Origin: a virus
Reading direction: 5' to 3' (one strand)
DNA: 64,000 bases
Virus record (IMG/VR): IMGVR_UViG_3300032242_001280
A program made the position numbers and the translations under genes. Within the stretch, counting starts at the first letter, position 1. Each line of letters starts with the position of its first letter. Under the pieces are notes generated by a model. That model searched no databases, was not told the origin of the DNA, and saw only the letters and a program-made list of their open reading frames with translations. This document shows positions 35,977 through 56,093 of the stretch, in pieces.

Positions 35977-36412
35977 TTTCTTCTCCTTGCTTGTAAAGTT
36001 CTAATAGGGTATGGTATTGTTCATATGCATCCTTTAGCGTAGGATACTTTTCTGTGAAATATGGATCATCTGCGATAATCATCATCTTATCTGCAATCAT
36101 CATAACAGTTTTATATAATTTATCAAGATTTATTTCATTATGATTAGTTCTAATAATTGCATCACCTTTATCTTGTGGTGTAATTTGCAATTCTTTACTA
36201 GTTATTGATACTGTTGGGCTTACAGTAGACCAATTCATAGAACCAGTATTTGATAGATATCCAGTGCCGCCATTGCCTCCACTTGAAACAATTCCTACTG
36301 AATAAGAACTTGAACCAACTGCGCCGATTGCGGGTGTATATGTAGTTGAACCAGCGGCACCAATTGTAGTATAAACTGTATTAGATGGATTTTGGACGGT
36401 TTTGGCGGTCAT
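35966..36412 (-). CDS. Hypothetical protein with low-complexity N-terminus
   Basis: Ser/Thr/Gly-rich N-terminus; KYPTLKDAYEQY. Confidence 0.6.
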   Translation of the reverse strand: MTAKTVQNPSNTVYTTIGAAGSTTYTPAIGAVGSSSYSVGIVSSGGNGGTGYLSNTGSMNWSTVSPTVSITSKELQITPQDKGDAIIRTNHNEINLDKLYKTVMMIADKMMIIADDPYFTEKYPTLKDAYEQYHTLLELYKQGEESGD

Positions 36413-36737
36413 GCTTTAATTTAGCAGCATAACGGTCTGGTGTCAATTTATATTTGGTAATAAATGCATTATGCAAGTCTTTTGGATCAATCTGAAATGC
36501 CATGCAAATGCTTTGCATTTCATGATCTATGCTATCATAATCTATTTTTTCTATTTCTGGCAATCTGCTAGCTAGTCTTGCAACTGCATTTTTCATATTG
36601 TTTGGTTCTGCGCTACGAACAATATTGTCATATTTCCAACGAGCAGCCATAAGACCACGGGCACCCGCACTTACTGGTCTACGGCCTTGGATGCCTACAC
36701 TCATCGCTGCTTCGGAAATAATCTCGTTAATTTTCAT
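36381..36737 (-). CDS. Putative head internal protein (CTS-like N-terminus MKINEIISE)
   Basis: Start moved to ATG 36737; YDSID..MQ.IC......LH..F..KY..TPD.Y domain. Confidence 0.6.
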   Translation of the reverse strand: MKINEIISEAAMSVGIQGRRPVSAGARGLMAARWKYDNIVRSAEPNNMKNAVARLASRLPEIEKIDYDSIDHEMQSICMAFQIDPKDLHNAFITKYKLTPDRYAAKLKHDRQNRPKSI

Positions 36738-36738
36738 T

Positions 36739-37689
36739 TTATGCTGTTCTAATCTTTTTAACAATTGCTGGTATAAAAAGTTTTTTAAGCAATTCAGAAC
36801 TATAAATTTCTAATGTTGCTTCTTTAAATTTTACCATTTCTTCTTTTGTAAATTCAAAGAATCCTGCGCATCTTGATTTACTTTCATCCACAAATGCTTC
36901 ACTATCTGTGATTGTTTCTTGACGCTCAGCCAATGCTGTTTTCTTAGCAGCATCTTTGAATAATTCCTTATCTTCGTTGGATAATGAATCCCAAAATTCA
37001 TTTGATATTACGATAGTTGTTAGAAATAAACTATGCTTTGTATTTGTAATATAAGGAGTTTTTTCTTTTACTCTGTCAAAGCGAACTAATGTTGTTTCAC
37101 CACCATCAAAATCAATATCTGGGTTCTCATCAAAGTGCACTGATAAATCATGTCCACTGCGATCCAATACAGGATTTGCTCCTAGAATATTATATATTTC
37201 TTCTGCAATAGGGCTTTCAGAACAACTAATTGTTTTTCCCTTAATATCTTCCAAATTCTTAATTGGTGAATTTGATACCATCACTCTAAATCCACCACTA
37301 TATGTAAATGCCAAGCCTCTAACTTTGGTGTTTTTGCTTAATAAATCAAGCAAATTTTCGCCAATTGAACCATCTAGTACTCTGGTTGCATGTGCATGAT
37401 CTTTAAATAAAAATGGTAAATCAAAAATGTGAAAATTTTTATATTTTGTACCAAGTGCAGTAGTTTGAAATTGCGCCATCTGAAAACGATTATTAACTAA
37501 ATCACTAAAAAATCCTCTTCTGTTAGCAGCATTTGGATCATTATAAAATTCTGATTTTGTTAAAATTGTTACATTGATTCTACCATTTGTTTGTTCTTCA
37601 ATAATATTCTTAAATGCATTTGCTGTTCTAAGAAATAAGTGCAGTGGTTCGTGTGCAACAACCCATGTTAAATTAACTTTCTCAGTCAT
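36739..37689 (-). CDS. dctP: TRAP transporter substrate-binding protein (DctP-like), no signal peptide
   Basis: F...IEEQTNGRINV, IFDLPFLFKD..HA.RVLDG.IG, GGFR, PIKNLEDIKG, LGANP, FWDSLS. Confidence 0.8.
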   Translation of the reverse strand: MTEKVNLTWVVAHEPLHLFLRTANAFKNIIEEQTNGRINVTILTKSEFYNDPNAANRRGFFSDLVNNRFQMAQFQTTALGTKYKNFHIFDLPFLFKDHAHATRVLDGSIGENLLDLLSKNTKVRGLAFTYSGGFRVMVSNSPIKNLEDIKGKTISCSESPIAEEIYNILGANPVLDRSGHDLSVHFDENPDIDFDGGETTLVRFDRVKEKTPYITNTKHSLFLTTIVISNEFWDSLSNEDKELFKDAAKKTALAERQETITDSEAFVDESKSRCAGFFEFTKEEMVKFKEATLEIYSSELLKKLFIPAIVKKIRTA

Positions 37690-37761
37690 ATGATATTCCT
37701 TGGCTTAATGTATTTATTACTAGTTTTTTTTCATGGACTAGTCTTATTAACTGATATATTA

Positions 37762-38553
37762 TTATTTACTTAACGCTAATATATTGTTTTTTATAATTGC
37801 ATTTATAATATTGGCTACACTTTGATGCGTTTTAATTCCTGGATGGTTATCTCGCCCAAAATCTTTCCATGCAATAAAATCTTTCATCTGATCGCTTTCA
37901 TACCATACAGGTTTGGAATAAAAACTTTCTACATTAAAGTTTATTTTAACAAAATTTGTACTAACTTGGATAACAGGTATATTATGCAATTTTGCCAATA
38001 GATCAACGGTTCGAACATACTCTAACAAATGCAATTCGCTGCAGTTTTGACTCCAGTATATCATATGATTTTGTTCTTCTTCAGTCATCTCATCAATCCA
38101 GCCAGGACCACGGGTAACACGAACATAATCATCTTTAGTAGGTACAGCATATGAAAACCTAGCACAGTCTGCCCACATAACTACCAGTAATTTAACATCG
38201 ATATTTTCACATGAACTGTTAAAAAATGAATTAATGTTGCGCATTATAGCAAGATTATCACCACCTGTGCTAGCAAAGCTAAAGTTTGTTAAATTATGTT
38301 TTTTTGCTACCAGATCACAGAAGCGCAATTCTACTGGTATACCTACGCCAACAGAAAAGCTAGGACCAAAACTTGCTAATGCTGGTGTATCTCTTTCTAA
38401 TTGAGGACCACGAAACCCGTAGTCGTTAAATTTATAATCAAAATCAGGTCCACGATAATTGCCATGCCAATTTCCTGCTCTATCTGGCCCATGATGCGGC
38501 GTTTGTTTTTTAGCAGTAGGCAGTATACAAGATATGTATTTTAGTTCTGGCAT
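37762..38553 (-). CDS. SGNH/GDSL-hydrolase-like protein
   Basis: YKFNDYGFRG, FGPSFSVG (block I), NF..GGDN, DNHPG..TH (block V). Confidence 0.55.
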   Translation of the reverse strand: MPELKYISCILPTAKKQTPHHGPDRAGNWHGNYRGPDFDYKFNDYGFRGPQLERDTPALASFGPSFSVGVGIPVELRFCDLVAKKHNLTNFSFASTGGDNLAIMRNINSFFNSSCENIDVKLLVVMWADCARFSYAVPTKDDYVRVTRGPGWIDEMTEEEQNHMIYWSQNCSELHLLEYVRTVDLLAKLHNIPVIQVSTNFVKINFNVESFYSKPVWYESDQMKDFIAWKDFGRDNHPGIKTHQSVANIINAIIKNNILALSK

Positions 38554-38762
38554 TATACTTTGCCGTCTGACCTTAATTGAGGAGGACGCCCAAGTTTGTC
38601 TGTTTTGTTACCAAACTTAGCTGCTTGCTTTTGTGTTTCACCTGGATGGATATCGACCGTTAGCGCATTGGCATAACGAGGGTCTTTTGCAGCCTTCTTA
38701 GTAGCAGGAACTACACCAACACCAGCGGCTTCATCGAGGTCAAATAATTCAGTTAATAACAT
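38553..38762 (-). CDS. Putative head internal peptide (MLLTELFDLDE leader)
   Basis: Acidic leader followed by a basic peptide. Confidence 0.55.
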   Translation of the reverse strand: MLLTELFDLDEAAGVGVVPATKKAAKDPRYANALTVDIHPGETQKQAAKFGNKTDKLGRPPQLRSDGKV

Positions 38763-38767
38763 TCAAA

Positions 38768-39610
38768 TCACCACTTACGGCAAGACCAGTATCTCGCCTT
38801 AGTGCGTGGACCTGGATTCTCACAATGATGTCTAGCACGGAAACTCTTACGACGCTTTGGATTACTCTTCTTAATACGCATATTAGGATCACCAAAGTTG
38901 ACTTTCTTTACATTGCCGCTCTTTGGGTCTTTAACAAATACTTTAAACTTCTTTACATCACCACGCATTGGTTTGCCAAGTGCAACCTTACGACCATGAT
39001 ATTCTGCCTCATAAAGGTCATCCATAAAGAAACGAACTTCTTGATCGCCCTTGTATAGAACAACATCATCGTCTTCTTCTTCAACATCCCACCCCATATT
39101 ATCAAGCATCTTTGCGGCTTGGGCATGTTTCCCTTCATCGCCATTCCACCACATTTTTACCAATCGTTTTAAGGTTTGTTCATTGTTTTTTAGTGAAACT
39201 ACTTCACCTTCTTCAATGCTTTCACCATAATCTTTCTTATCGGTGTTTTCACGATAGCCTTTGGAATATGCTTCTACTTCACTTGGGTCAGTTAATTTTT
39301 CATGACTGTGACCACCATGATTGTTTGGAACAAGCTTGTGTGGATTGTGTCTGCGACCATAGTAAGAATCTGCACGACCGCGATCATATGGTGAACCATG
39401 CTTATCTTCTATATCATCTAAATTTTCAAGCATATTCATAAGTTTTTCATCGGCCATGAGGATAATGCCATCGCCATCATCGGTCATTTCCATGATATGC
39501 GTTTCTACTTCAATTGCATTGCCAAATTCTAAAAACACACCATCACCAATAGTTGGTCTGTTTTCTTGTATTGCTGTAAGTTTTTCAATTATATAACGCA
39601 TATCACTCAT
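38768..39610 (-). CDS. Modular putative internal-head polyprotein with basic C-terminal domain
   Basis: Modules GSPYDRGRADSYY..., and KKVNFGDPNM..NPKRRKSFRARHHC..ARYWSCRKW, separated by ESIEE and LYE linkers. Confidence 0.65.
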   Translation of the reverse strand: MSDMRYIIEKLTAIQENRPTIGDGVFLEFGNAIEVETHIMEMTDDGDGIILMADEKLMNMLENLDDIEDKHGSPYDRGRADSYYGRRHNPHKLVPNNHGGHSHEKLTDPSEVEAYSKGYRENTDKKDYGESIEEGEVVSLKNNEQTLKRLVKMWWNGDEGKHAQAAKMLDNMGWDVEEEDDDVVLYKGDQEVRFFMDDLYEAEYHGRKVALGKPMRGDVKKFKVFVKDPKSGNVKKVNFGDPNMRIKKSNPKRRKSFRARHHCENPGPRTKARYWSCRKW

Positions 39611-39632
39611 TTTATAAATCCTAACATATTAT

Positions 39633-40115
39633 TTATTTTGCTTTAGTGCTTACACGGATTGGAGCTTTTCCGTTGCCACCGCTGTCTTTGCCGCCACGCC
39701 CTGATGCATTTTGTGCTTTGCGTTTACGGGTAACTGCGCTCTTTTTTTCCGATGCACTCATACTACGGGCTTTTGCTGCTGGTACGCATTTGGCATAGCC
39801 ACTTTTACTGCCACTTGTTCCGCATGGCGGATGTTTGCCACCTACTTTCTTACCAATATTAACCCACTTGTCTTTAAACCACTTATGAAGATTGCTGCTT
39901 GCTTCTGGTAGAATTAAATTACCGCAGTTCATACAATAATCAACTTGTTCCAATAAAGTACTTTCACTTATTGGATCACAACTGATTTCTGTGCTCTCGC
40001 TGCGTTTCTTTTTATTCTTGACGCAGTTTGGATATTTCTTTCCAAACATAGTCTTCATGCCTTCTTTATGGTAACCTTTCCAGCATGCTTCGCCAAGAAT
40101 TTCTTCCGCTTTCAT
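39633..40115 (-). CDS. Modular basic polyprotein (MKAEEILGE leader)
   Basis: CWKGY..G.K...PNCV module plus LHKWFKDKWVNI..PCG..KCVP module, joined by Glu linkers. Confidence 0.65.
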   Translation of the reverse strand: MKAEEILGEACWKGYHKEGMKTMFGKKYPNCVKNKKKRSESTEISCDPISESTLLEQVDYCMNCGNLILPEASSNLHKWFKDKWVNIGKKVGGKHPPCGTSGSKSGYAKCVPAAKARSMSASEKKSAVTRKRKAQNASGRGGKDSGGNGKAPIRVSTKAK

Positions 40116-40954
40116 TTGGATTTATTTCCCCAGTTTGCAGCACCCTTCTTACGGCAAGTAACTAGCGCACCACTGGCATAAGCACTAGGCCATACTTTAT
40201 AACGACTTTTTACTTTATAATAACAAGCATCTTGTTTTTCATCAACACGCGATTCTGGTAGTATAAGTCCACCACAGTGTGGGCAGCTTTCATTCATATC
40301 ATCATGCGCAGCACTGCCAACGATTTCATTATAATTGTCCATGCAAAGATAATCATGGTTCTTGCTCAGCGCAATCATCTTTTCGGCAACATCGTGCAAA
40401 TCTAGATCAGTCTTTGCATCTTCACGAGCATATTCCATCATACGAAGTAGTAGCGGAATGTCTAGTGATACTGTATCTGTCTTATCTGCTTCCATTACAC
40501 TTTCATCATGCTTTGGCTTCTTGCCACGCTTTTTCATATTAATAGCAATGGCTGCTTGTTGTGCTGCGCTACTTGCTTCACCAATACTTTTCTGCGTACC
40601 ATCAATGTCAAATGTATTCTTTATTTTCTCAAGTGTTTTTAATAAAATTTCGCGATTTGGTTCTGCTGGATTCATTCCAAATTCAGCACGAGCAACATCA
40701 ACTAATTTCAAATATTGTTCAGGCTCAGCTCCGCCCATCATTCCACGAGAATTTTTTGAAATAACTCGCATGATAGCTTGGTTGCGTTTGTTTGGTGGGA
40801 GTTTATCTGCAGTAAAAACTTCGTCGATTGCTGCTGATATTGTATTGGCATTGCGAACTAGTTGTTGCGCAATATGCGGATTTCTTAAAAGATTAGTGTT
40901 CTTTTGTATATCAAGTTTATTAGATGATTCTGCAATAATATCTTTTATTCTCAT
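40112..40954 (-). CDS. Modular polyprotein (MRIKDIIAE leader)
   Basis: Modules AAQQAAIAINMKKRGKKPK, DIPLLLRMMEYAREDAKTD and DACYYKVKSRYKVWPSAYASG, each preceded by x-x-E. Confidence 0.65.
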   Translation of the reverse strand: MRIKDIIAESSNKLDIQKNTNLLRNPHIAQQLVRNANTISAAIDEVFTADKLPPNKRNQAIMRVISKNSRGMMGGAEPEQYLKLVDVARAEFGMNPAEPNREILLKTLEKIKNTFDIDGTQKSIGEASSAAQQAAIAINMKKRGKKPKHDESVMEADKTDTVSLDIPLLLRMMEYAREDAKTDLDLHDVAEKMIALSKNHDYLCMDNYNEIVGSAAHDDMNESCPHCGGLILPESRVDEKQDACYYKVKSRYKVWPSAYASGALVTCRKKGAANWGNKSK

Positions 40955-41550
40955 TATACTCTCGCAGGTTCTCTTGCTGGCTGCGCGGGTGCAGTTGCAG
41001 CAGTAGCAGGTTTTACTTGTGGTTTCTGTGTGATAGTTTGGTTGTAAGCTGGTTTCAAAGGTTGCTTTTGTTGCTGCGCTGGTTGCTCTGGCGGTAACGC
41101 ATTTTTTGATTTAAGATAGTTATACAGTTTATTGCCACCGTACAGTAACGCAATAACACCAGCAACTGGCAACGCATATGAAACTGCTAGTTTAGCAAGA
41201 CCAGTTATTGCTGCGTTTGGCAAATTATCGCCAATAATCATAGAAAGATCACTTGCAGCTTTTGCAGAATCTGCCCATGGAGTTATTTGGTTTGCAAGAA
41301 TTTTTCCTGTTGCAGCAGGATCAGATACCAAATTAAAAGTAAGATTGGCAAGATTCCATGCACCTTTTGGATGAGTAGTGGCTGCTGCCAATGTAACAGC
41401 TTTTATTGGATTTGTCACAACCCAAAAAACGCCCTTAGCGCCTTTTTGCAATCCCCATGCAAGTGCTTGTAATATTTTATCACCAGATGCTTTCATATCT
41501 GCTTCGGATAATAATTCATAATCTTCTAAAATTATTTCGTTGATTTTCAT
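40954..41550 (-). CDS. Putative internal/membrane-active protein (MKINEIILE leader)
   Basis: Start at ATG 41550; hydrophobic YALPVAGVIALLYGG; Pro/Gln/Ala-rich tail. Confidence 0.6.
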   Translation of the reverse strand: MKINEIILEDYELLSEADMKASGDKILQALAWGLQKGAKGVFWVVTNPIKAVTLAAATTHPKGAWNLANLTFNLVSDPAATGKILANQITPWADSAKAASDLSMIIGDNLPNAAITGLAKLAVSYALPVAGVIALLYGGNKLYNYLKSKNALPPEQPAQQQKQPLKPAYNQTITQKPQVKPATAATAPAQPAREPARV

Positions 41551-41551
41551 A

Positions 41552-42475: not shown

Positions 42476-42514
42476 AAGAATTATTCCTTTGGAGTATTTA
42501 TTCTGTCCTATAAA

Positions 42515-43134: not shown

Positions 43135-43144
43135 TTATATATCC

Positions 43145-43678: not shown

Positions 43679-43683
43679 AATTT

Positions 43684-43792: not shown

Positions 43793-43806
43793 TTACAGGA
43801 GTTCCG

Positions 43807-43989
43807 ATGCGTATCAGTGAAGTTATCCCTACAAATGAAGATTTTTCAAGCCAAATTGTAGCTGTTGATCCTGTTATTTCTCAGGAAGATACTGCTCGCA
43901 TCCTTGCTGTGCAGGAAAGCAATTTCAGCGAGCCTATGAGCGGCGATGAACTTGTTGAACATATGAAATCTGTTCTTGGAATTCAATAA
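43807..43989 (+). CDS. Putative antitoxin-like small acidic protein (MRISEVIPTNE leader)
   Basis: 60 aa, CAGGAG RBS, TAATG coupling to the downstream toxin-like gene. Confidence 0.5.
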   Translation: MRISEVIPTNEDFSSQIVAVDPVISQEDTARILAVQESNFSEPMSGDELVEHMKSVLGIQ

Positions 43990-44348: not shown

Positions 44349-47300
44349 TTACGATAGCTGTCTTACTGTCCAACCTGTAAAACCTGAATTATTCACTAGC
44401 GGCGTGAAATGGCGTAGTGCATCTTGATAGGAATTAAATTCTAATTCTTCGGATATCTGCGTTCCATTTTGAACAAATAAAGCATATGTGCCACGACCAC
44501 CAGGATTTGCAATTCTAGGTGTGTTATTAGTTACACTAATATTGGGATCATTTGCCCAATCTGGCGTAGGTTCAGCAGCAGGTTGATTTACAATAGCCTC
44601 GCCTGGTCCCATATAGAATAGTTCTTCTTCAGCGGTGTCTGGATCAATGGCATACATCGCCATGCCCCTAATTCCACCTAATGTGCCACCCCAACGCATT
44701 GAACTGCTATAGCGTCGTTGAACACTATTAGCATACTCTTTTGCTTGTTCTGGATTGTAGAAAGTAAATGAAGTAATATTTGCTCCAGTATCTGTGTATT
44801 TTAACACATACCTTACAGAACGACCTGTAGCAGCACCAGAAGCAGTTGTACTTGATTGTGGTGGTGCCGATGGTGGTGATGGCGCACGGTCTTCGCCACG
44901 AGTGGTAATACGCATCATTTCATCACGCATATATTGTAGTGAATATTCATCTAATACACGAACAGAAAGACGATCCGCTCGCAAGCCGCTTACGCCCCAG
45001 TTTACGCCCCAGTGTTTCTCTATTACTGGTATAGCTAGTTTTTCTATTTCACTTGAATATGTTGAATACATCTCAACCTGTGGTATAAACACCATAGTTT
45101 TACTGTCTGTTTCATTTGGATTGGTAGAATAGTATTGAACAGTCACTAAACTATAACCAGGATAGCGTAGGGCTATATCGCCCAGCGGCAGTTGACGAGC
45201 GTTAGCAAACTTTATTGCCGTCTCAATCATATCATATGGTGCAGTGCCGTTGATTTTTACAACATTTTCACCGTCTTCATTTTCCAAGAAACCATCAACT
45301 GGACCAGACCCAAGTGGTGCAACAGGCTTACGACGCTCTTGAGCAGTGCGTAATTCTTTTACAAGTTGTTCTTTGTTTATTGCGCCAGCAGTATATTTGG
45401 CAAACAGTTGCATCGTGTTATCTTTTTCACTGATACCGCCGCTTACAAATTTATACAGTTTCTTTTGATATTCTTGACGAGCATCTTCGGTATCAGCGGC
45501 TGCTCCCATAACACGAACATAACGCAACATAGTCTTGCGAATTTCTTCGTATTGCTCAAAGTAATTGCCGCCAGCACTGCGGAACTCAATATAGTTTGGC
45601 TTGATGTTTACGCTTACATAACGGTCGCCACGAGGAACCAACAGTTTATTGATTTCTTTTTTAGCAATATCTTCCAATCCACTACGCATCTTATCAAGGA
45701 TAGCAGGAATATTCTTTCTGCCACTTCTGCCACGCACTTCACGCTTGGCTTGGTCAAAACTACTCTTTGTCCATCGTGAACCAGCACGACCAAATGCTTT
45801 TAACACATACTCATCACCAAGCAACATAATCACTTTAAGATGGTCAATGTTTTCCATTGTTTGGTTAGGGATACTAACACCAATATGGAAACCAGTTGTG
45901 CGATTAGTATAATAATCATTGCTCTTTGCCCAACTGAAAACATTTTCTAACGCAGCCAAACCATCTTCCAAGTTCATTGGCGGTGATACAAGTTCAATGC
46001 CACCATCGCCATCATTGTTTGGACTATCAAGCGAACTATCTGGTTCAAATATCCAAGTGGTTTCATCACGGTCTGCTCCGTGATAACCGCTGCTTGCTCG
46101 TGCCTTATAACCAGTTGTGCGTCTAAAATCATCAACGACATCGCCAATGTCTTCGGTTGGTTCTTCTCTACTGCTGCTAAATGTATAATGCGGCCAAGTT
46201 AGCGATTCACGAGTATTGCGATTTACCCAACGCATCCAATCATACATATCACCAATGTTATTGCGATAAAGGAATTGACGCCAAATACCTTCTTCGTTTT
46301 CGCTCATCCAATTTTCACGAACGCTGTCTTTGGCATCATCAAGTTCACGCTCACTTGCTTCGTCCGCAGGAGTATCGCCTAATTCTTCTTGAATTGCATC
46401 TTTCCAATCTGTGGTATTTTCATAATTATCGTCATAATATTCAGATTGATAATCACTAAATGCTTCATAGAATAATTCTAGCGCACTTTCAACCTCACGG
46501 CGGGTATTGTGATCGCCAGCAAAAAAATCCATAACATCACGCTGACGATCACGATATGAAGCCGTGCCAGGAAAATCCTCATTGGTATCCATATCCTCTT
46601 CCTCTTCCTCTTCGCCTTCTTCGCCACCAAGACCAGGAATATACATTTCAGTTTCAAAACCAACTTTCATACTCTTGGCAAATGGTGTTTGGGAAAACTT
46701 TTCAAGAGATGTAGGACTCATATTGATTTCGTTAAGGATACTTTCTTCAAGGCTTTCTTCTCTATTTGGAACTTCTGCCAATTGCCAAGGTGCTGCCAAA
46801 TTATGTTCCTCGGCATAACTTACAGCATAACGACGAGCACCAGTTACACTTGCAGCGTTAAATGTATGAACAACACGACTTTCACTATCCAAAATATTAT
46901 ATGTTGTGCCATTTGTAGCAGTGATGTTTGCTTGTGGTCTTGGGATAGCATTGCCCGCAATATCATAACCACGATCAATTTCTGCTTGTGTATATTGGCG
47001 AGGTTGTTCTGGTTGTGGGCTTGGTTGAGGAATTACTTGACCTTGCGTATCCCATAGATTATTGTTGTTTGGTGATCTTATAGCAATACTTGCTAATGGT
47101 AGACCATGTTCTTGCGCAAATCTTTGGGCTGCTTGCGTTGCTGCGTAAAAACTTTGTGCTTGTGTTGCTAATAATTCTGTGCCATCGCTACGGTTTACAA
47201 CAACATAGGTTGCTGCGCTACCACTAGGCAATTGTAGTGCCTGTGTACCTGCACCAGGTATTGGTGTATTTGTGTCATCACTTGCAAGGGTTAGAAACCA

Positions 47301-49223
47301 ATCGCTATCACGATAGCCATATTCACGGGTCATACGAACAGCAATATCTCGTGCTTGCTCATTATCTGGCGCACGAAACTGTGTAACCGCCATTTGATTA
47401 TTTGCTAAGCGAATCATATACATTGGTTGCATAGATAATACAGGTCGGTCACCGCCAATTGATAATGGTTGGCGTGTTAGAATATCACCTGCTTGACCAT
47501 CACGGGTATCTTTTAACGCAACTAAGTCAAATGAACGACCACTTGCTCGCACTATGCGTGCGGCAATATCATATACATCACTGTAAGTAATTCTTGGAGA
47601 TACTACAAATTCTTGAATTACGCCACCAGTTATACGACTAATAATCTGGAATGTGATACCACCAATACCATCATAATCTACATGCGGTTCATCATCAGCC
47701 GCTAGTTTAGCATACGGATCACTTGACTGTGGTCGGTCTGACTTTGCTTTCTTGGCAAAATCACGCTTGCTTTGTGCATTCTTAATATAACTTACCAATG
47801 CTGTACGAGGCAGATTTCCAGTAGCAAACTGTGTAAAATACTTGATAGTATCAGTTTCATCTTTCTTATCAGCAGTTAACAGTTTCGCAAATTTCTTTTG
47901 ATATTCTTTGCGTTCCATCTCTGGATGTAGTGCGATATTCATAGCATATACAACACGGAGCAGTGTATTCACTACTTCATCAGTATTCATATCAAGCCAA
48001 TTGCCGCCTGGTGAACGAAACTCTACACGATTATCTTTAGTATTGATAGAGGTAAACTTATCAGTATAACCATTATGAATAAGTTTGGATGCTACGGTAT
48101 TCAAGCTCTTACGCATAGCATCTACGGCTTGGTCTGCTTTTGTAGGGTTTTGTTTAATGAATGATGCAATCTGGTCAAAAGCACTGCGAGCATAAGAATT
48201 GCCAAGACGACCAAACTTTTCAAGAATATACTTGTCGCCTAAAAACAACGCAAGTTTAACATAATCAAGTTTATCTAACTGATAACCTGGTATAGAGATA
48301 TTCATATGCAAACCAGTTTTATCATTGGTATAAGCATTGCCATCTTTTGCCCATGCTTTGACTTTATTAATTTGGTCAATCATAGTTGGAATATCAAGTG
48401 GCGGTGATACGAACTCTAAACCTTCGCCACCTTTGCCACGAGTAGGTGATAGGCTGCTATCTGGTTCAACCACATACGCATCGTTTGGCTTTGCAATACT
48501 ATGATAACTACCACTCTTAATAGTTTTCATACCAACAGCACGGCGGAAATCACCTACATCAACAGTAGAACGAGTTCTGCGGTCATATTCATCTGGTTCA
48601 GTCCAAACTGGCCAAGATAGCCCAAGATTGCTATCATTTGCCAAATCACTCATGTAATTACCACCATAGGTATCTTCTAAAAATTTTTCCAGATAATCAT
48701 CTATGTTATCATCATCTTCAATATTATCACGCCAAGTTTGATAGTATTCTTTTCTAAATGTTTCGTATGGATCAATGGCATCTAATTCACTAAACAGTTC
48801 TTGTTGGTTTTTATAATCACGACCATAACGCTTGTCAATAAAATCTTGAATACGATCACCTGCCCAAGTGTCCCATAGACCACTACCAATATAATCTTCC
48901 CATGCATCCTTCATTAAATCAATTGCACGATTTACATCACGGCGACTATTGTGATCGCCAGCGAAGAAATTCATAAGGTCTCGTTCTAAGTTGCTCCAAC
49001 TGACAGTAGAAACACGCTCATCTTGGTCATAATCTGGTTCGCTATCAAAATCTTCATATGGATCATAATCATCGTCCTCTTCTTCTTCAAGATTAGTGAC
49101 GATAAGTTCAAATTCAAGACCTGCCTTAGCATTGGGAATCTTTGCCACCGCCGCACGAAGGGCTGCTGGACTCATATTCACTTCATTTAGGATTTCTTCA
49201 AGGATCAGGTCTTTGTTTTTCAT
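44349..49223 (-). CDS. 1624-aa polyprotein with two amidoligase (COOH-NH2 ligase, Amidoligase_2-like) domains and repeated small accessory domains
   Basis: Two sets of G[LF]E[FT]E / EPDSSL / [LI]E[FL]VSPP / TG[LF]H / EFRS.GG motifs; start MKNKDLILEEILNE at 49223, 5 nt after GTAAATA. Confidence 0.8.
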   Translation of the reverse strand: MKNKDLILEEILNEVNMSPAALRAAVAKIPNAKAGLEFELIVTNLEEEEDDDYDPYEDFDSEPDYDQDERVSTVSWSNLERDLMNFFAGDHNSRRDVNRAIDLMKDAWEDYIGSGLWDTWAGDRIQDFIDKRYGRDYKNQQELFSELDAIDPYETFRKEYYQTWRDNIEDDDNIDDYLEKFLEDTYGGNYMSDLANDSNLGLSWPVWTEPDEYDRRTRSTVDVGDFRRAVGMKTIKSGSYHSIAKPNDAYVVEPDSSLSPTRGKGGEGLEFVSPPLDIPTMIDQINKVKAWAKDGNAYTNDKTGLHMNISIPGYQLDKLDYVKLALFLGDKYILEKFGRLGNSYARSAFDQIASFIKQNPTKADQAVDAMRKSLNTVASKLIHNGYTDKFTSINTKDNRVEFRSPGGNWLDMNTDEVVNTLLRVVYAMNIALHPEMERKEYQKKFAKLLTADKKDETDTIKYFTQFATGNLPRTALVSYIKNAQSKRDFAKKAKSDRPQSSDPYAKLAADDEPHVDYDGIGGITFQIISRITGGVIQEFVVSPRITYSDVYDIAARIVRASGRSFDLVALKDTRDGQAGDILTRQPLSIGGDRPVLSMQPMYMIRLANNQMAVTQFRAPDNEQARDIAVRMTREYGYRDSDWFLTLASDDTNTPIPGAGTQALQLPSGSAATYVVVNRSDGTELLATQAQSFYAATQAAQRFAQEHGLPLASIAIRSPNNNNLWDTQGQVIPQPSPQPEQPRQYTQAEIDRGYDIAGNAIPRPQANITATNGTTYNILDSESRVVHTFNAASVTGARRYAVSYAEEHNLAAPWQLAEVPNREESLEESILNEINMSPTSLEKFSQTPFAKSMKVGFETEMYIPGLGGEEGEEEEEEDMDTNEDFPGTASYRDRQRDVMDFFAGDHNTRREVESALELFYEAFSDYQSEYYDDNYENTTDWKDAIQEELGDTPADEASERELDDAKDSVRENWMSENEEGIWRQFLYRNNIGDMYDWMRWVNRNTRESLTWPHYTFSSSREEPTEDIGDVVDDFRRTTGYKARASSGYHGADRDETTWIFEPDSSLDSPNNDGDGGIELVSPPMNLEDGLAALENVFSWAKSNDYYTNRTTGFHIGVSIPNQTMENIDHLKVIMLLGDEYVLKAFGRAGSRWTKSSFDQAKREVRGRSGRKNIPAILDKMRSGLEDIAKKEINKLLVPRGDRYVSVNIKPNYIEFRSAGGNYFEQYEEIRKTMLRYVRVMGAAADTEDARQEYQKKLYKFVSGGISEKDNTMQLFAKYTAGAINKEQLVKELRTAQERRKPVAPLGSGPVDGFLENEDGENVVKINGTAPYDMIETAIKFANARQLPLGDIALRYPGYSLVTVQYYSTNPNETDSKTMVFIPQVEMYSTYSSEIEKLAIPVIEKHWGVNWGVSGLRADRLSVRVLDEYSLQYMRDEMMRITTRGEDRAPSPPSAPPQSSTTASGAATGRSVRYVLKYTDTGANITSFTFYNPEQAKEYANSVQRRYSSSMRWGGTLGGIRGMAMYAIDPDTAEEELFYMGPGEAIVNQPAAEPTPDWANDPNISVTNNTPRIANPGGRGTYALFVQNGTQISEELEFNSYQDALRHFTPLVNNSGFTGWTVRQLS

Positions 49224-49239
49224 GATATTATTTACCCGT

Positions 49240-52200
49240 TTATTGTAGCCATGCACCAGAAGCAGGTTGGTCAAGCACGATTGGTGGTATGCTATGATCA
49301 TCTGGCTCCAAGTATAAACTTTTAGCATCAAAGGTACTTGAAAGACGATCTGCATATGATTTTGCCCAAGCATATGCTTCACTTGGTGTAGCAAAGCGTT
49401 TTGGGTCAGAGAGATTAGAACCATATGGCGGTTCGCCAATCCATACTCTATAAATCTTTGTGCTAGCAACAAATGCTGATCTTGCTGCTGCATCTGCTTT
49501 ATCGGTCTGACGCTTCTGCAAGCGCATCTTCAACACATTTTGGTCAATTAAACCACTGGCATACATGGTAAAGTTTGAAAGTTGGTCATCATCTTGTGGA
49601 ATATGTTTGGCAATCATTGCATAAAGTTTTTTAGCATATTCTTCACGATATGCCTGTGGATCAGCCGCAATTGCCATTACCTGAACATAACGCAACACAG
49701 TATTCTTGATGTCGTCTATATGTTCCATGAAGTTGCCGCCAGCACTGCGGAACTCAATGTAATTTGTTTTTATATTCACACTTACATAACGATCAGTACT
49801 AATTGAACGATTTATAATCTCTTTTGCAACTTTTGCTAAGTTGGTGCGCAGTTTTTTTGCATACTCTTGTGGTGTTGTTGCGCTGCCTCGTCTTTTTAAC
49901 ATCTTTTGTATTTGTGTAAACATACTTTTAGTATATGCGTTACTGCCACGATCAAATAGGTCTAGCACATATTGATCACCAAGCAGCATTACTACTTTGA
50001 GTGGGTCAACTTTTGCTTGTAGTTCTTCTGGCAAACTAACTCCAACATGGAAACCAGTTGATGTATTGCCATAATAACCGTTTTGTCCTGCCCATTGGAA
50101 GAACTTATCAAGTGCTGCTATACCTTGTTGCAGCGGCATTGGCGGTGAAACAAGTTCAATGCCACTATCATCACCACTAATACTGCCATCAGGCTCAAGA
50201 ATCCAACTAGTAGCATCGCGTTTTGCGCCATGATATCCACTACTGACTTTTGTTTTAAAGCCGCTGTACTCATTCCAATTCTTTGCAAGTTGCGCTATCG
50301 TTATCACGCCACTAGGTTGCATATTTGGTTTTAAATAAGGGAACCATGCTCCACCACCGCCATATTCTGCATATTTTAGAACCCAATCGGATATGTGTTT
50401 AACATTTTCTGACTTTAGAAATTTTTTCCATTGCTTTTCATAATCTTCTGTGGAAAGTTCATTTATTGTTTTTGTAAAAAATATTGCTCGCGCCCGTGCA
50501 CCCAATCCATATGGATTGTTTGGTTCATCGGCAATTCTATCTCTTATCTCTCGCTGGCCTGACCAACCACTTCTGCGCCCGCCAAGATCGTCATAGATTT
50601 TTTTAGCAATTACTTTTAAATTTTCTGGTTTCAGCATTTCATCAATCATGCTAGGATTTTTCTCAACTATATAATCAATGAATGAATGTTTCAAGGTCAA
50701 TAAGTCATCATTTATTGCTGACAAATCACTTTCACCAGTACCAGCATCCTTATACCAGTTTAAGACTTCATCTTGCCATGTTCTAGTAATTGGAAATTTA
50801 ATATCTTTAGTCATATCCCAATTTCTTGCATCTTGGCGAGGATCAGATTCATCGTCATCTTCATCTTCTAAACCAGGTACTAGCATTTCTGCTTCAAATC
50901 CAATAGTCATTGCTTGTGCTTGTGGGGTGGCAGCAAACTTTGCCAATGAACCAGGTGACATGTTTACTTCATCAAGCTCACCGACATAATCTACTTCGCT
51001 GCCGCCTGTATCTGGCTGAACCCAACGGTCCCAAGGAAAAACCGCTACCTGACGGTCAGGATAATCATTACCACCGCCTACAGTTCCTATGATAGAGCCA
51101 GCATGTTCGCCAACAGAACTTGGACCAAGCAACTGCATAAACTTTGCTTTTTCTTGTGGTATTCTAAAATCATGACTTGAAGTTGCATTTCCTCTATTGC
51201 CATAATAAACATCTACGGCAATATTCGGTCTTGATAGTGCAGATGCTGCATAAACTCTATATAATTTTTTAAGACTACCTAATGTTCCCTCTAGAAAAAA
51301 TGTATTGGGAAGATTTACAAAACGAACATATCCTTGGGTAAATGCTTCTTCATATCCATCAATGTCGTTATCATAAAGCCATGACAGATGTTCTTCTGAA
51401 CCAACATATTCTACACGACGATTAGGCAAAATCCAACCATGTGTTTCATTTGTATCAAGTGCTTCTTCTACACTTTCTTTTTTGGCAGTGGCAGCACGGA
51501 TTTTAGCAATAGCACTTTGTGCGGCATTATCACTCTTGGCTGGTTGTTGTGCTTCTGCGTCCCATTTCTTGTGTAGGAATGTTAATAAACCTTTTAGGTC
51601 TGCAACACCAATCTTACGCATAGCAGCAATAATTTTATTAGCCTGATCATAGCCACTATTGCCTGGCTTGCGAGCATTTGAAATTTCATTGCGCAGACCT
51701 AAGTCATCAGCAAACTGACCGCCGTTCCAATAAGTTAAACTATAACGCAGTTCATTTGCTCGCTTGGATAACTCGCTGCGACTTTTCTTGAATATTAGTT
51801 CTAACCACGGACCTAACATTCGCTTACCATAATTACTGGTACTTACATAACCAGTTTTCTTTTGGCCACGAATTAAATCTTGGGCTTTGCTTACTGGTAT
51901 TGCTCGCTTGGTGTCCTGTAATTTCCATGCATTTTCGTTGCTATAGAGATATGTTGGTAAACCACGCTTCTTTGCTACAATCATCAACTGACGAGTAGTT
52001 GGACTTGCAAACTCACCTGCTTCTTTAAGCAGAATATGAACTGCTGTAATCGCATCTGCTGGTATTGTTGGCTCACGAGCAAATATACGGTCTTCGCTTT
52101 CACTGTGTTTTTGCTTATCAAATCCTGCCCAGTAATCAATAGCCTTCACAGGATAACGACGATTAAACCAATTACCATCAAGATTAAACATAACGGCAGT

Positions 52201-54918
52201 GCCACCTGTTAACTCGTGATAGCCGCCTACTTTGCTGCGTGTAGTAGATAAGAAATAGTTATATCCTTTTGGCGCATACGGTGCTTCTACGGTGCCAGTA
52301 GAAATGCTCAACATAAACTCATTGTTCTTGAGAATGTTTAATGCTGCACCCACGCTGCCTGTATAATGGAACAACACTGGTGATGCTGCTTCATCTAAAC
52401 TTTCTGTTTCTTCTAAATCTTTACGATGACTACGCTTGTAGTATGAACACCAACCATTTGCCGCAATCTTGCCACTAACAGCCGAACAACCGTGTGGAGG
52501 ACGCCACATAGTGCAGTGATCACAGCGTTGACCATTGCGAGGCATAGCCTGATACTTTGCTTCGGCTTTGGTTGATTTTTCTGCAACTTCATTCAAGCCT
52601 TCCGCCACACTTTCTTTTACTGCAAATTGCGCCATATCTGCAATAGGAATAACCTTTGCATTTATACTTGGTAATTTATTCAATATAGCTTTGTGTGCTC
52701 TATGGGTGCCATCGGCTATCCAAAACTGCCCATTTTGTCTTTTAACAACAATAATTGGATATTGCAAGTCTGCTTTTTGCATCCGAGCCATAGATTGTGT
52801 TTCATCTTCTTCACGACCTGCAATTTGGTCAGCAAACTGTTTTGGATCAACTTTAACAACAGGATATTTGTCTGCTAATGCAACTAAATCTCTAATTTTA
52901 AACTTAAATGATTTTCCATCTATGCCAATACCTGCTTCTTGTTCAAATCCTTCACCTTCTTCTAATTCTTCATTAACTTTGTTTTTACTGATTTCTTCAA
53001 TATCACTATCAGGAACTAATCGTGCAGGTATACTATCTTTTTTAAGTGTTTTATAAGCCCAAAATCTATGATGACCATCTAATACTTGATACCCACCTTT
53101 GTATTTGCGGACTAAAATAGGTGGTATATTTTCATTCTTCTCTAGACCATCTATAATTTTCGCAACATTTGCTTGGGCTTTTGGTAATTTCATCTTTTCA
53201 TCTGGTTCAAACCCAACAAGTTCTTTTGTAGGAATGTTGATGATAGGCAGTGAATCAAACCCGCTATCATCTACTTCTGCACCAAAATAGTCTGGATCAG
53301 TATATAGTTTTACTTTACCTTCGTTTGCCAAGTCAGGAGCAACCATGTAACTGTTCTTGCTGCCTGGCGGAAACTCAAAGCGTTGCGCACCCTTTTCACG
53401 AGCAGCAGCACGAGCCTTCTTAAACTCCAGTGTCCACCAACGACGATTAGTATAATCCTTATTGCCCATATAGGCTTTTGGATCAGTAATACGCAACTCG
53501 TTCCATTGGTCAGGAGTTAGGTCTTCGTTTATTTGAACGCCCAACGCTTGCAACATAGCACGAGCAACTACACGATCTTTTTCTTTTTCTACTTCTGGCA
53601 ACTGACCATAAGTTTGTTGGGCAAGTGCATAACGCTTCTTTTTCTTATCGGGAATTGTAGGCGCATCTAACTGCAACTTGCCCATATAATCAGCCACTGC
53701 AGTCTTATTCCAACCATCGTGGATTGCGCTAGCAATAGCGTCAACATCTGTTATACCACTATCAATCATACGCTTGGCAGCGGTTGCACTTTCAATGTTC
53801 GCTAACCAACCAAAGTTAGCACCTGGTGTGGATAACCCATAATGATAAGCATCATCTAGGGCTTTATCACTTATGTGAGCAAGTTGCTCTACTGATAGGC
53901 TTTCAGGGATAATGCTTTCAATAAATTTACTTTCATTTGAGTTTCGGGTCAAATTGTAGCGCACTGCATATCCATCATCAATAGTTCTTGCATCGTAACC
54001 AAGAGATGTGGCATAACGGTCTACAAGTCTATTGTATAGCTTGGCACGGCTTTGTTTGTTTGATCCAGATTCAACTTCTTTGTCAACAGAGAAAGTTATT
54101 TGTAATGGTTTGTGTTTTTTAATAAATTTTTGTATAGCATTTAAAACAGTTGCAAATATTCGTTGTGCATCACCTTCACCAGTGACATCTTGGCTGTTGT
54201 TTCTCCAGAACTCAACTTGCCATTTGGCGTCGCCTTCGTTATTAAACATGACACTTAAATTTGTTCCATCTGGTAATGGAACTAGCATATCATAGCTACC
54301 AAATTCACTTTTTTCCCACTTGCCTCGGTAAGGTTTATCAAAGGTTTCTTCCATACTTTCGCCAAGTCCCATACCACGGCGAACTGCTTGAAATAGCGTC
54401 TTGTCATCAACCGTCATATTTTGTGGCACACGAGTAGCCCGTTCAAACGCATCTGGATCACCATCTTCTGCAGCTTTTCTTGCATTGGTTGCGCTTGTTA
54501 AACGAGGACTTTCCATAAAAGAAAGTGGTTCAAATTTATAATAGCCGTGCGCTACTTCTTTTCCATTGTACTGTTCCAGTACTGGTCGCATGCTTGCCAT
54601 GTCATCTTCACCAGCCACAAAAGTGGCACTGCGGAAACCTTTGTCATAAAGATATGCGGCTGCTTGTAGGAATGTTTTGATGTTTGGGTCTTCAACTAGA
54701 TGTCCTTGAACTTGTGGATATAATAATTTAACCCATGCTATTTTTTCTACATAGGTAAGTGGATTTTTCTTTGCATCATGGCTTTTACTTAAGAATAGCG
54801 CCCATGCGCCTTGTTTTGCCACGCTAGCAATAGTATTAATTAAACCTTCGTGTCCATAATGTGGAGGATTCAGACGCCCGAAAGCAAACGCGATATGAGG
54901 ATTATTAGCCATTTTCAA
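49240..54918 (-). CDS. 1892-aa polyprotein: HIGH nucleotidyltransferase, unknown domain, RyR, 2x ParB-like, HiPIP, ART-like, unknown domain, amidoligase
   Basis: FGRLNPPHYGH; AIHDGW..YGQLPEVEKEKDR; VLDGHHR and IADGTHR; CDHC..C..GWC; LFHYT..LSTTRS..ESEDR; GFEAE/EPDGSI/IELVSPP/TGFH/EFRSAGG. Confidence 0.8.
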   Translation of the reverse strand: MKMANNPHIAFAFGRLNPPHYGHEGLINTIASVAKQGAWALFLSKSHDAKKNPLTYVEKIAWVKLLYPQVQGHLVEDPNIKTFLQAAAYLYDKGFRSATFVAGEDDMASMRPVLEQYNGKEVAHGYYKFEPLSFMESPRLTSATNARKAAEDGDPDAFERATRVPQNMTVDDKTLFQAVRRGMGLGESMEETFDKPYRGKWEKSEFGSYDMLVPLPDGTNLSVMFNNEGDAKWQVEFWRNNSQDVTGEGDAQRIFATVLNAIQKFIKKHKPLQITFSVDKEVESGSNKQSRAKLYNRLVDRYATSLGYDARTIDDGYAVRYNLTRNSNESKFIESIIPESLSVEQLAHISDKALDDAYHYGLSTPGANFGWLANIESATAAKRMIDSGITDVDAIASAIHDGWNKTAVADYMGKLQLDAPTIPDKKKKRYALAQQTYGQLPEVEKEKDRVVARAMLQALGVQINEDLTPDQWNELRITDPKAYMGNKDYTNRRWWTLEFKKARAAAREKGAQRFEFPPGSKNSYMVAPDLANEGKVKLYTDPDYFGAEVDDSGFDSLPIINIPTKELVGFEPDEKMKLPKAQANVAKIIDGLEKNENIPPILVRKYKGGYQVLDGHHRFWAYKTLKKDSIPARLVPDSDIEEISKNKVNEELEEGEGFEQEAGIGIDGKSFKFKIRDLVALADKYPVVKVDPKQFADQIAGREEDETQSMARMQKADLQYPIIVVKRQNGQFWIADGTHRAHKAILNKLPSINAKVIPIADMAQFAVKESVAEGLNEVAEKSTKAEAKYQAMPRNGQRCDHCTMWRPPHGCSAVSGKIAANGWCSYYKRSHRKDLEETESLDEAASPVLFHYTGSVGAALNILKNNEFMLSISTGTVEAPYAPKGYNYFLSTTRSKVGGYHELTGGTAVMFNLDGNWFNRRYPVKAIDYWAGFDKQKHSESEDRIFAREPTIPADAITAVHILLKEAGEFASPTTRQLMIVAKKRGLPTYLYSNENAWKLQDTKRAIPVSKAQDLIRGQKKTGYVSTSNYGKRMLGPWLELIFKKSRSELSKRANELRYSLTYWNGGQFADDLGLRNEISNARKPGNSGYDQANKIIAAMRKIGVADLKGLLTFLHKKWDAEAQQPAKSDNAAQSAIAKIRAATAKKESVEEALDTNETHGWILPNRRVEYVGSEEHLSWLYDNDIDGYEEAFTQGYVRFVNLPNTFFLEGTLGSLKKLYRVYAASALSRPNIAVDVYYGNRGNATSSHDFRIPQEKAKFMQLLGPSSVGEHAGSIIGTVGGGNDYPDRQVAVFPWDRWVQPDTGGSEVDYVGELDEVNMSPGSLAKFAATPQAQAMTIGFEAEMLVPGLEDEDDDESDPRQDARNWDMTKDIKFPITRTWQDEVLNWYKDAGTGESDLSAINDDLLTLKHSFIDYIVEKNPSMIDEMLKPENLKVIAKKIYDDLGGRRSGWSGQREIRDRIADEPNNPYGLGARARAIFFTKTINELSTEDYEKQWKKFLKSENVKHISDWVLKYAEYGGGGAWFPYLKPNMQPSGVITIAQLAKNWNEYSGFKTKVSSGYHGAKRDATSWILEPDGSISGDDSGIELVSPPMPLQQGIAALDKFFQWAGQNGYYGNTSTGFHVGVSLPEELQAKVDPLKVVMLLGDQYVLDLFDRGSNAYTKSMFTQIQKMLKRRGSATTPQEYAKKLRTNLAKVAKEIINRSISTDRYVSVNIKTNYIEFRSAGGNFMEHIDDIKNTVLRYVQVMAIAADPQAYREEYAKKLYAMIAKHIPQDDDQLSNFTMYASGLIDQNVLKMRLQKRQTDKADAAARSAFVASTKIYRVWIGEPPYGSNLSDPKRFATPSEAYAWAKSYADRLSSTFDAKSLYLEPDDHSIPPIVLDQPASGAWLQ

Positions 54919-54955
54919 TTCCAGATAAAATATTTATCTGCTTTGAAACTTGACC

Positions 54956-56083
54956 TTAATTTGGTGTCCAGCGATGCCTTGGCACTAATTTTATGTTTGG
55001 GTCGCCATAGTGAACATAGCCTTCGCCGCCGCGCTGACCTTTGGTAGATTGCTGAATATCACCGCCTTCGCTATCTAATTGGTCAATAATTTGATTTTTG
55101 ACTGTACGAAGATTCTCTAGTGTAGCAAAGGTTGCAATAAAACCTTTTTGGTTTTGCGCAATCCAGTCGCTAATCTTTGCTTGCATTGGCGCACTTTGTT
55201 TGCTGCTACTGTTTAACCAGTTTACAAACTCACTAGCAAGATCGTTTGTTCTACCAACTCTTGCCATTTGATTATTAAAGTTATAAAGAACGCCTTTAAA
55301 CCCTGCCATTTTCATGGCAGCGAGGCGGTCATCGTCCAAGAAGTTATCAATTACATTTTTGTTTGCAGCAATATACTTTTGTAAGTCTTGTAACTTTTTT
55401 GTATCTACTTTTATAGGCTGTTGTGCATATCGTGGACCTAACACAATCAATCCTTGTGTTTGATTAAATTTAGTGAAGTCATCTATTGGTTGTTGTTGAT
55501 CATCGCCCATTCCAAATTGTGGAAAGAAAGCATGCCCAACAACGGCTGCAGTTGCTTTTGAAATACGCTGCCCAAGTTCAGTTGTTGTTGGTACGCTATA
55601 TGTTACATTGTTTGGTGTAAAGGTATATGAATCATTTTCCATTTGTGGGCGGCGCATAAACAACAAATCGCCATACACATATCCACGAAAATCTTTAGGG
55701 GTTGCTGCTTCGAATAGCGCCCATAAACTAGCATACTCGTTTGCAAAACGCATACGCTCATCTTCTTTATCTGGCGTTACATTGCCAGTGCTCATAATAA
55801 ATTTTACAAGTTCTTGTGGACTGCGACTTTTACCACTGTCATTTGGCTTTAACCAACCGTTGTGCCCAACCATTATAAAACTGCCATCTGGTTCGCGTCC
55901 CCAATATACTTGAGGTTTACCGTCCCATTTCCAACGAATTTGAGTTGGGCTACGAGCAAGATCACTGAGGCGACTAACTGCTGTCTCTGCTCCAGCACTG
56001 CCGCTGATAAGCACAAGGTCTTCTACATGCTGAAATGCACGACCAACTTTTGGGGCTTCGTTAATAATTTGGTTTATAAACAT
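54956..56083 (-). CDS. Ligase-like covalent nucleotidyltransferase (DUF6267-like) with CTS-like leader MFINQIINE
   Basis: KWDG (motif I), YGDLLF (III), GEGYV (IV), IKLV (V); QHVED N-terminal motif. Confidence 0.65.
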   Translation of the reverse strand: MFINQIINEAPKVGRAFQHVEDLVLISGSAGAETAVSRLSDLARSPTQIRWKWDGKPQVYWGREPDGSFIMVGHNGWLKPNDSGKSRSPQELVKFIMSTGNVTPDKEDERMRFANEYASLWALFEAATPKDFRGYVYGDLLFMRRPQMENDSYTFTPNNVTYSVPTTTELGQRISKATAAVVGHAFFPQFGMGDDQQQPIDDFTKFNQTQGLIVLGPRYAQQPIKVDTKKLQDLQKYIAANKNVIDNFLDDDRLAAMKMAGFKGVLYNFNNQMARVGRTNDLASEFVNWLNSSSKQSAPMQAKISDWIAQNQKGFIATFATLENLRTVKNQIIDQLDSEGGDIQQSTKGQRGGEGYVHYGDPNIKLVPRHRWTPN

Positions 56084-56093
56084 TATGCAATAT

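Follow-up and report, generated by a model that had tools for sequence, protein, structure and literature searches.

Why should ten otherwise unrelated genes, gathered in one part of a phage genome, begin with much the same short peptide ending in Glu, and why do similar strings recur inside the largest proteins of the same region? The question is raised by a 64,000-nucleotide stretch of viral DNA (IMG/VR record IMGVR_UViG_3300032242_001280; hereafter the window), in which these genes form an island at positions 36381-56083. An earlier note, made from the sequence alone, proposed a capsid-cargo system, in which proteins are packaged by their leaders, cut after Glu inside the head and injected with the DNA. 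In the present study, targeting of the leader proteins to the head and their cutting by a protease of the T4 gp21 type appear to be the best explanation of the sequences compared, and we give this a probability of about 0.7. That the cargo is ejected into the host we infer with less confidence.

According to this explanation, the N-termini of 9-16 residues would be T4-type head-targeting propeptides; each would dock its protein on the prohead scaffolding core and be removed after the final Glu (hydrophobic residue at P3, Glu at P1) by a gp21-type (Peptidase_S77) prohead protease. The two giant proteins of the island, PP1 and PP2, would be polyvalent proteins, that is, strings of separately folding modules, and the joints between the modules would be degenerate copies of the leader signal (E-S-h-x-E/ and h-x-E/, where h is hydrophobic and a slash marks a known or predicted cut site). 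The same head protease would cut the giants into single enzymes inside the head, and the released pieces would exit with the DNA at infection.

As placed by its family-B DNA polymerase (33049-35706, minus strand), the window is part of an uncultured jumbo phage of the T4 superfamily; the best cultured matches of the polymerase are Atu_ph07 (45.7% identity), Phosso and GAP32. With megablast, the 19.7-kb region had no match to cultured phages at the DNA level, and many relatives were found in IMG/VR. These include G003 (117 kb), with a polymerase 84% identical and an identical gene order in the island, and G002, a complete genome of 347 kb with a polymerase 67% identical.

All ten leaders quoted in the earlier note are present at gene starts, on the minus strand except where stated, and each is a short N-terminal peptide (6-20 amino acids (aa)) of the kind ending in Leu/Ile/Val-x-Glu on unrelated proteins. 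MKINEIISE (36711-36737) starts a 118-aa gene (36381..36737), whose orthologues keep MRIKEIIE/AAMS or MKIKEILE/AAMS with synonymous codon changes, and MKINEIILE (41524-41550) starts a 198-aa gene (40954..41550). Two modular genes encode 280 aa each: one (40112..40954) has the leader MRIKDIIAE (40928-40954) and the joints KSIGE/ASS and ESVME (40490-40504), and in its counterpart from L002 the leader is fused directly to ASSPAQQAAIAIN; the other (38768..39610) has the 16-aa leader MSDMRYIIEKLTAIQE (39563-39610) and an internal ESIEE joint (39209-39223), and its G003 orthologue starts with MSDMRSLIEKLTAISE. MKAEEILGE (40089-40115) precedes a basic Cys/Trp module with a weak DUF5872 match in a 160-aa gene (39633..40115). 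The 69-aa gene (38553..38762) with MLLTELFDLDE (38730-38762) corresponds to an internal segment of a 1243-aa polyprotein of G002. MFINQIINE (56057-56083) starts a 375-aa KxDG ligase-like protein (DUF6267, Pfam PF19782; 54956..56083), of which the G003 orthologue starts with MFINQILTE. A 177-aa NT5C-type 5'-nucleotidase (Pfam PF06941; 43145..43678) has the leader MRISEVVAHQE (43646-43678); its L014 counterpart starts with a leader as well (MRIDEVVKTE), and the G003 orthologue (MAYQKFRVYLDMDG) has none. The only leader gene on the plus strand (43807..43989) encodes 60 acidic aa and starts with MRISEVIPTNE (43807-43839), conserved in L002, L006 and L008. The tenth leader, MKNKDLILEEILNE (49182-49223), belongs to PP2 (1624 aa; 44349..49223).

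When all ATGs with 40 or more codons behind them in the six frames of the 64 kb were compared with the strict pattern M[KRFL][ILN][NSKTE][EDQ][ILV][ILV], seven matches were obtained, all of them predicted gene starts within 36.7-56.1 kb, and none elsewhere in the window; nor did a looser pattern find a leader on any gene called in the window outside the island. A degenerate DNA pattern for MKINEII.E matched at least 120 IMG/VR stretches, nearly all at gene starts, and the proteins behind the matches listed fell into 36 unrelated groups (single-linkage BLAST clustering, E < 1e-4). In whole genomes, matches to the loose pattern were few: 9 among the 417 genes of G002 and 13 among the 436 of G008. 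Roughly half of them look like true leaders; these cluster in a small number of islands, and recognisable tail or replication genes of the two genomes were not seen to carry any. A protein starting MKLSELVAY beside the polymerase in distant relatives also matches the loose pattern; it has no terminal Glu and was treated as unrelated. The two MKINEII leaders of the window have three synonymous differences, and orthologues in seven loci keep the leader peptide while the codons drift. Since the peptide is conserved under synonymous codon changes, selection acts on the peptide.

The likeness to T4 is close. T4 propeptides were read directly from NC_000866 and compared with the leaders of the window and its relatives, which resemble these experimentally defined peptides. 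IPII and IPIII of T4 indeed start with MKTYQEFIAE/A, the capsid-targeting sequence that the earlier note had given together with its cutting after Glu by gp21, and near-identical counterparts in relatives are MRAQEFIKE and MRASEFITE. T4 gp24 (MAKINELLRE/S) is matched by MKINEIISE, MKINEIILE and MRIKDIIAE, and Alt (MELITE/LFDE) by MLLTELFDLDE; no counterpart was listed for gp22 (MLKEQLIAE) and gp21 (MNEPQLLIE). In T4, the propeptides target proteins to the scaffolding core and gp21 cuts after Glu; residues 4 and 7 of the IPIII tag serve targeting, and residues 8 and 10 processing; Alt is cut at ITE-6 and LTE-619 (PMC9026906; PMC5694885). Asp at position 10 of the IPIII tag blocks cutting (PMC9026906). 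Among 133 unique N-termini that have only the first seven leader positions in common, position 9, corresponding to P1, is occupied by Glu in 74 cases and by Asp in only 2, which agrees with the requirement for Glu in T4.

The gp21-like protease, for which the earlier note proposed a search elsewhere in the genome, was located in relatives. Peptidase_S77 is present in all four of G002-G005 and in four of four additional large contigs with MKINEII.E genes. In G003, G002 and G008 the head module follows the T4 order: portal, gp67-like protein, acidic core protein, protease, scaffold and capsid protein. The core protein of the relatives starts with MRSQYEQLIE or MTSKFEQLIE, and the capsid protein, which in G002 and G003 also matches the loose leader pattern, reads KYLAE/SAS or KYLKE/NASAGS where it aligns with the maturation site of T4 gp23. 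Relatives also have proteins of about 53-66 aa (L030:1582, L027:1442, L143) that read leader/NASVGATSSG and so copy the predicted mature N-terminus of the capsid protein (KYLKE/NASAGSTAAG in G002).

PP1 (1890 aa; 49240..54912, minus strand) contains a cytidylyltransferase, a GNAT-like module (DUF6934), a helical module, two ParB_N-like modules, a HiPIP-like stretch, a putative DarT/Tpt1-like ADP-ribosyltransferase (ART), an unknown module and an amidoligase, within the range of two to 15 disparate domains per polypeptide that marks polyvalent proteins. PP2 has two amidoligase modules (Pfam PF12224 twice), each starting with E/[VI]NMSP, and an internal joint EESLEESILNE (46728-46760, minus strand). 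Several short, loosely similar segments follow each amidoligase module of PP2 by eye (44349-46700 and 47000-47750), and similar-looking segments also follow the amidoligase in the 1243-aa protein of G002. No peptidase family was matched in PP1 or PP2 with Pfam and PHROGs.

The ten linker strings quoted in the earlier note are all present in the proteins. E-S-[ILVM]-x-E occurs seven times in the 6451 aa of the island and not in the other 13747 aa of the window (Fisher p 3e-4); with the background of two related whole genomes, G002 and G008 (about 0.08 per 1000 aa), the Poisson probability for the island is 1.3e-6. In PP1, whose joints all lie on the minus strand, GESMEE/TFDKPY (aa 184-189; 54346..54363) is followed at some distance by ESIIPE/SLSVE/ (aa 332-342; 53887..53919), near which homologue alignments end at about aa 320-330, and by VNEELEE/GEGFEQ (aa 646-652; 52957..52977), where they end in the 640s and restart in the 660s. 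ESVAE/GLNE/ (aa 767-775; 52588..52614) and LEETESLDE/AASPVLFHY (aa 833-841; 52390..52416) precede the ART-like module. KESVEE/ALDT (aa 1145-1150; 51463..51480) is ESIEE/A or SIDE/A in orthologues, and VGELDE/VNMSP (aa 1310-1315; 50968..50985) stands before the amidoligase module. In orthologous giants, the hydrophobic P3 and the Glu at P1 of the joints are kept and the flanks change.

To place the joints relative to folds, as the earlier note had suggested, two AlphaFold models (PP1 aa 773-1310 and aa 150-490) were built with collinear homologue alignments. In the former, aa 840-1122 and 1152-1262 are folded and aa 773-839 and 1124-1150 have low confidence, the latter stretch ending exactly at the Glu of ESVEE; the fold after the LEETESLDE joint starts at about aa 840-846. 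In the latter, aa 190-325 and the part from about aa 341, where a helix begins, are folded; aa 150-188 and 326-338 have low confidence (for aa 326-338, a predicted local distance difference test score below 50). In these models, the linkers at aa 189, 337, 841 and 1150 thus lie in floppy segments that adjoin folded domains. The first approximately 160 residues of the module at aa 842-1122 (51547..52389, minus strand) were modelled in a DarT/Tpt1-like fold: VIA-align gave Z 10.1 and a root-mean-square deviation of 3.3 A over 140 residues to 7yk3_C, Z 9.9 to 7omw and Z 8.4 to Tpt1 (8tg3), and the Foldseek match was weak (E 2.7e-3). We regard aa 842-1002 as a putative ADP-ribosyltransferase fold of this type. 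A weak likeness to GNAT was seen for the domain at aa 190-325, confidence was low in the model of the HiPIP-like stretch, and the fold search with aa 1152-1262 gave no convincing match, only gelsolin-like rows at Z 4-5.

The same joints are the places at which relatives differ. A search for shorter relatives of PP1 aa 181-1310 listed 120 proteins of varied architectures, including GNAT, NUDIX, GH19, ParB and deaminase partners; the leader core stands at the start of 81 of the 120, a full leader at the start of 65, and most others start within a module, being likely fragments, or with a cytidylyltransferase domain. The starts and ends of their alignments pile up at PP1 aa ~185, 320-340, 640-660, 770, 835 and 1110-1150. 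Stand-alone homologues starting with MRASEFITE/AFDQPY or MKINEIITE/AFDQPY align by BLAST onto GESMEE/TFDKPY (aa 181-189), and P0094 begins with MRASEFTQGLAE/GSGFEQEAGIG at the joint VNEELEE/GEGFEQ. At least 12 others begin with leader/A(S/T)xVLFHYT at aa 833-841; MRAQELLQE/RASPVLFHY and MLINEVITE/GATPILFHY align by BLAST onto ETESLDE/AASPVLFHY. In G003, PP1-like and PP2-like parts are in a single 2845-aa protein, where the PP2 leader, MKNKDLILEEILNE/V, corresponds to the internal joint DSLITEELLNE/V; judged from this alignment, a gene was split or fused at precisely this joint. The claim of addition and removal at the Glu linkers is supported in this respect, as relatives gain, lose, fuse and split modules exactly there. 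ART-module homologues in SCTP-2 and JA29 and ligase-like (DUF6267) homologues in cyanophages have no leader; thus, the tag is an add-on of this lineage and not part of the fold.

Such exchange exactly at the joint, and 17 leader nucleotides that are identical in two divergent genes, would also be expected if leaders and joints were mainly recombination seams for module shuffling, with no role in targeting or cleavage, and if the internal joints were relics of gene fusion. We consider this improbable, because the leaders are conserved as peptides while their codons have undergone many synonymous changes, P1 is strongly Glu over Asp, the leaders resemble functional T4 propeptides, and orthologous joints keep P3 and P1 where their flanks drift. 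The 17 nucleotides (ATGCGTATCAGTGAAGT) are the first of the genes starting at 43678 (minus strand) and 43807 (plus strand); the two copies (43662-43823) are inverted relative to each other and flank a 128-bp spacer, in which a TAAATA motif faces each way.

About as improbable is that the leader and joint proteins are accessories of the prohead core, degraded and expelled at maturation like T4 gp22, gp67 and gp68, rather than delivered effectors. The core, scaffold and capsid proteins of relatives bear the same kind of leader, and several leader proteins are small, acidic or of low complexity. However, folded enzymes for which no scaffold role is plausible (ART, GNAT-like, ParB-like, amidoligase, nucleotidase) are among the cargo, and an amidoligase homologue is present in the mature virions of Atu_ph07. 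This homologue (500 aa, 57.93 kDa, E 1e-28 to PP1/PP2) lies two genes from the portal gene, starts with MRWQDISSKKLTE/LKMNSST and is gp196 by gene order and mass; gp196 was detected in the virion proteome with 14 unique peptides and 30.2% coverage (Attai et al. 2018 Table S5, PMC6102473). Therefore, at least one module family of the giants is a virion protein in the superfamily. RsoM2USA also has an amidoligase homologue, on which the virion analysis of that phage, covering only ten gel bands, is silent.

The surroundings of the island could also be read as pointing to another destination. A ClpB/ClpA-like double-AAA ATPase and a DnaJ homologue (59045-62185) flank it, in G002 and G003 as well, and several of the tagged enzymes are of the nucleotide-metabolism type; the tag might thus address this unfoldase, a replication-associated complex or some other machine or site, or be cut by a cytoplasmic protease. 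This is less probable still: no Clp tag of such a form is known, the peptides that the tag matches are head propeptides of T4, Peptidase_S77 accompanies it in each of the 8 large contigs searched, and it is carried by the head proteins of the lineage itself.

The late-type motif that the earlier note saw upstream of several genes was confirmed, as TAAATA lies within 60 nucleotides upstream of 8 of the 17 genes of the region and of 10 of 62 elsewhere (p 0.012). It is found at 56091..56096 (minus strand), within TATAAATA, 13 nucleotides before the start of the ligase-like gene, and similar motifs are at 54931-54936, 49229-49234, 43684-43689, 42495-42500, 39630-39635, 37711-37716 and, on the plus strand, 43787-43792. 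In G003, ATAAATA stands 21-28 nucleotides ahead of the portal gene, the gp67-like gene, several tail genes and island genes. This fits T4-type late transcription and is not proof of it. The ATGs at 43678, 49223 and 56083 have a TAAATA that starts just 11-13 nucleotides upstream and lack an evident Shine-Dalgarno sequence; late transcripts of these genes would thus be nearly devoid of a 5' leader. That the shared N-terminus is selected merely for efficient translation starts, through AT-rich K/I/N/E codons and short or missing Shine-Dalgarno leaders, is very unlikely: the leader codons are AT-rich, many leader genes lack an obvious Shine-Dalgarno sequence and three have the close TAAATA, but the fixed Glu positions, the internal joints and the T4 propeptide match would be left unexplained, as would the lack of the motif in the window's other 62 genes.

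Several observations weigh against the proposal that leaders and joints mark head cargo. The window has neither the protease nor head genes; the island lies next to the DNA polymerase and chaperone genes, away from head genes, and these neighbours of PP1 and PP2 are not the virion or packaging genes that accompany polyvalent proteins. PP1 itself starts with MANNPH, without a leader, and homologues that begin with the cytidylyltransferase are mostly leaderless; therefore, its loading would need its internal joints, a route not known for T4. The G003 counterpart of PP1 has a weak leader (MMTIINSTLKE/ASGPH). The clusters of [ILVM]-x-E that the earlier note had noticed are not enriched, with 16.1 per 1000 aa in the region versus 17.3 outside. 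E-S-h-x-E was also considered as an exclusive mark of cargo and head proteins throughout the lineage and rejected, as it occurs in unrelated proteins of G002 and G008 too. In T4-like cyanophages (S-RSM4, S-CAM4; L258:2480-4236, L259:2510-4269) the ligase-like gene followed by a cytidylyltransferase gene is a conserved leaderless pair, which adjoins gp41 (primase-helicase) and MazG. In the window (54912-56083) the cytidylyltransferase partner has turned into the first module of PP1. Both units probably came from ordinary phage metabolism, or they may not be cargo. The capsid-cargo proposal is thus supported in part: T4-like leaders, a T4-type protease in the lineage, linkers that look like degenerate leaders between folded modules, a late-type motif common to structural genes of G003 and a module family in the Atu_ph07 virion speak for it, and the background level of [ILVM]-x-E, the leaderless PP1 and the leaderless cyanophage pair do not.

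Other genes of the window deserve mention. Inside the island, at 36739-37689, lies a homologue of DctP/TRAP-type solute-binding proteins (Pfam E 1.5e-42), which is kept in G003 and has neither a leader nor an obvious signal peptide. A 119-aa gene (43989-44348, plus strand), coupled to the leader-bearing 60-aa gene, had no Pfam match at E 0.01; a candidate likeness to RelE/YafQ has been suggested for it. A MoxR-type AAA ATPase adjoins a DUF2201 protein (putative metallopeptidase and VWA-like domain) at 20122-22652. A series of large paralogous genes occupies 6144-13784; the products of 6144-12666 cross-match each other's G002 counterparts in tblastn, and the product of 6144-7574, the only one of the series scanned with Pfam, has a weak radical-SAM match under the curated cutoff.

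If the tag works as in T4, it would provide a sequence-only rule for recognising proteins that are packaged in the head, and probably injected, in thousands of uncultured large phages. Such proteins would include enzymes of the ART, GNAT, ParB, NUDIX and amidoligase types, likely acting in the first minutes of infection, and head-protease joints would answer how polyvalent proteins are loaded and cut up. For the loading of foreign proteins into T4-like capsids, the tag suggests a modular design taken from nature. A broader view, on which we are evenly divided, is that T4-superfamily phages have an old, readable address code with three leader flavours (gp24-like, Alt-like and IP-like) and a worn form at joints. 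Head cargo could then be listed from metagenomes, and the giants would be operons at the protein level, strings of enzymes separated by the head protease, in which recombination at the tag would add, remove, fuse or split payloads.

Among known systems, T4 is the nearest. Its IPI, IPII, IPIII, Alt and gp24 have the same short N-terminal peptide ending in hydrophobic-x-Glu on unrelated proteins, with the near-identical motifs given above, and variable internal proteins with only the targeting sequence in common are established for T-even phages (PMC3012670). A gp21-type protease in the lineage and a variable cargo set that includes an ADP-ribosyltransferase are further likenesses. Unlike in T4, a single 20-kb island has about ten tagged genes, and in IMG/VR the tag occurs in at least 36 unrelated families; it is one residue shorter than the IP tag and recurs in worn form inside multi-enzyme proteins of 1600-2800 aa; T4 has no such polyproteins, and targeting in T4 was shown for N-terminal tags only.

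The giants resemble the polyvalent proteins (Iyer, Burroughs, Anand, de Souza and Aravind 2017; PMC5512222), whose packaging and injection are, in the parts of that paper drawn on here, an established prediction: up to about nine unrelated domains (ART, GNAT-like, ParB-like, nucleotidyltransferase) are joined in one phage polypeptide. According to the same parts, zincin-like metallopeptidase domains, frequent in the family and not obligatory, are proposed for processing, whereas the giants of the window show none and their joints carry the head-protease motif. The word amidoligase does not occur in the text of that paper, and its discussion of processing, in those parts, makes no mention of T4-type tags or prohead-protease joints. 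In the giant phages phiKZ and SPN3US, as proposed here, a related protease cleaves numerous internal head proteins behind a Glu, and propeptides are thought to target cargo; however, the lineage and the motif differ, head and ejection proteins being cut at (S/A/G)-x-Glu, the propeptides are mostly longer than 100 residues, and no common short leader or beads-on-a-string enzyme polyproteins were described (PMC5694885). The Dar proteins of P1 (DarA, DarB, DdrB, Hdf) are anti-defence proteins packaged in the head; one is processed before packaging, and DdrB has a ParB-like domain. Unlike the present proteins, they have no common N-terminal tag, are incorporated hierarchically via partner proteins and follow another protease logic. 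Our literature search for a link between T4-type tags and polyvalent proteins found no paper joining both. Although the internal proteins of T4 and the polyvalent proteins are themselves known, T4-type tags at this scale in uncultured jumbo phages, and as the joints of polyvalent proteins, are new.

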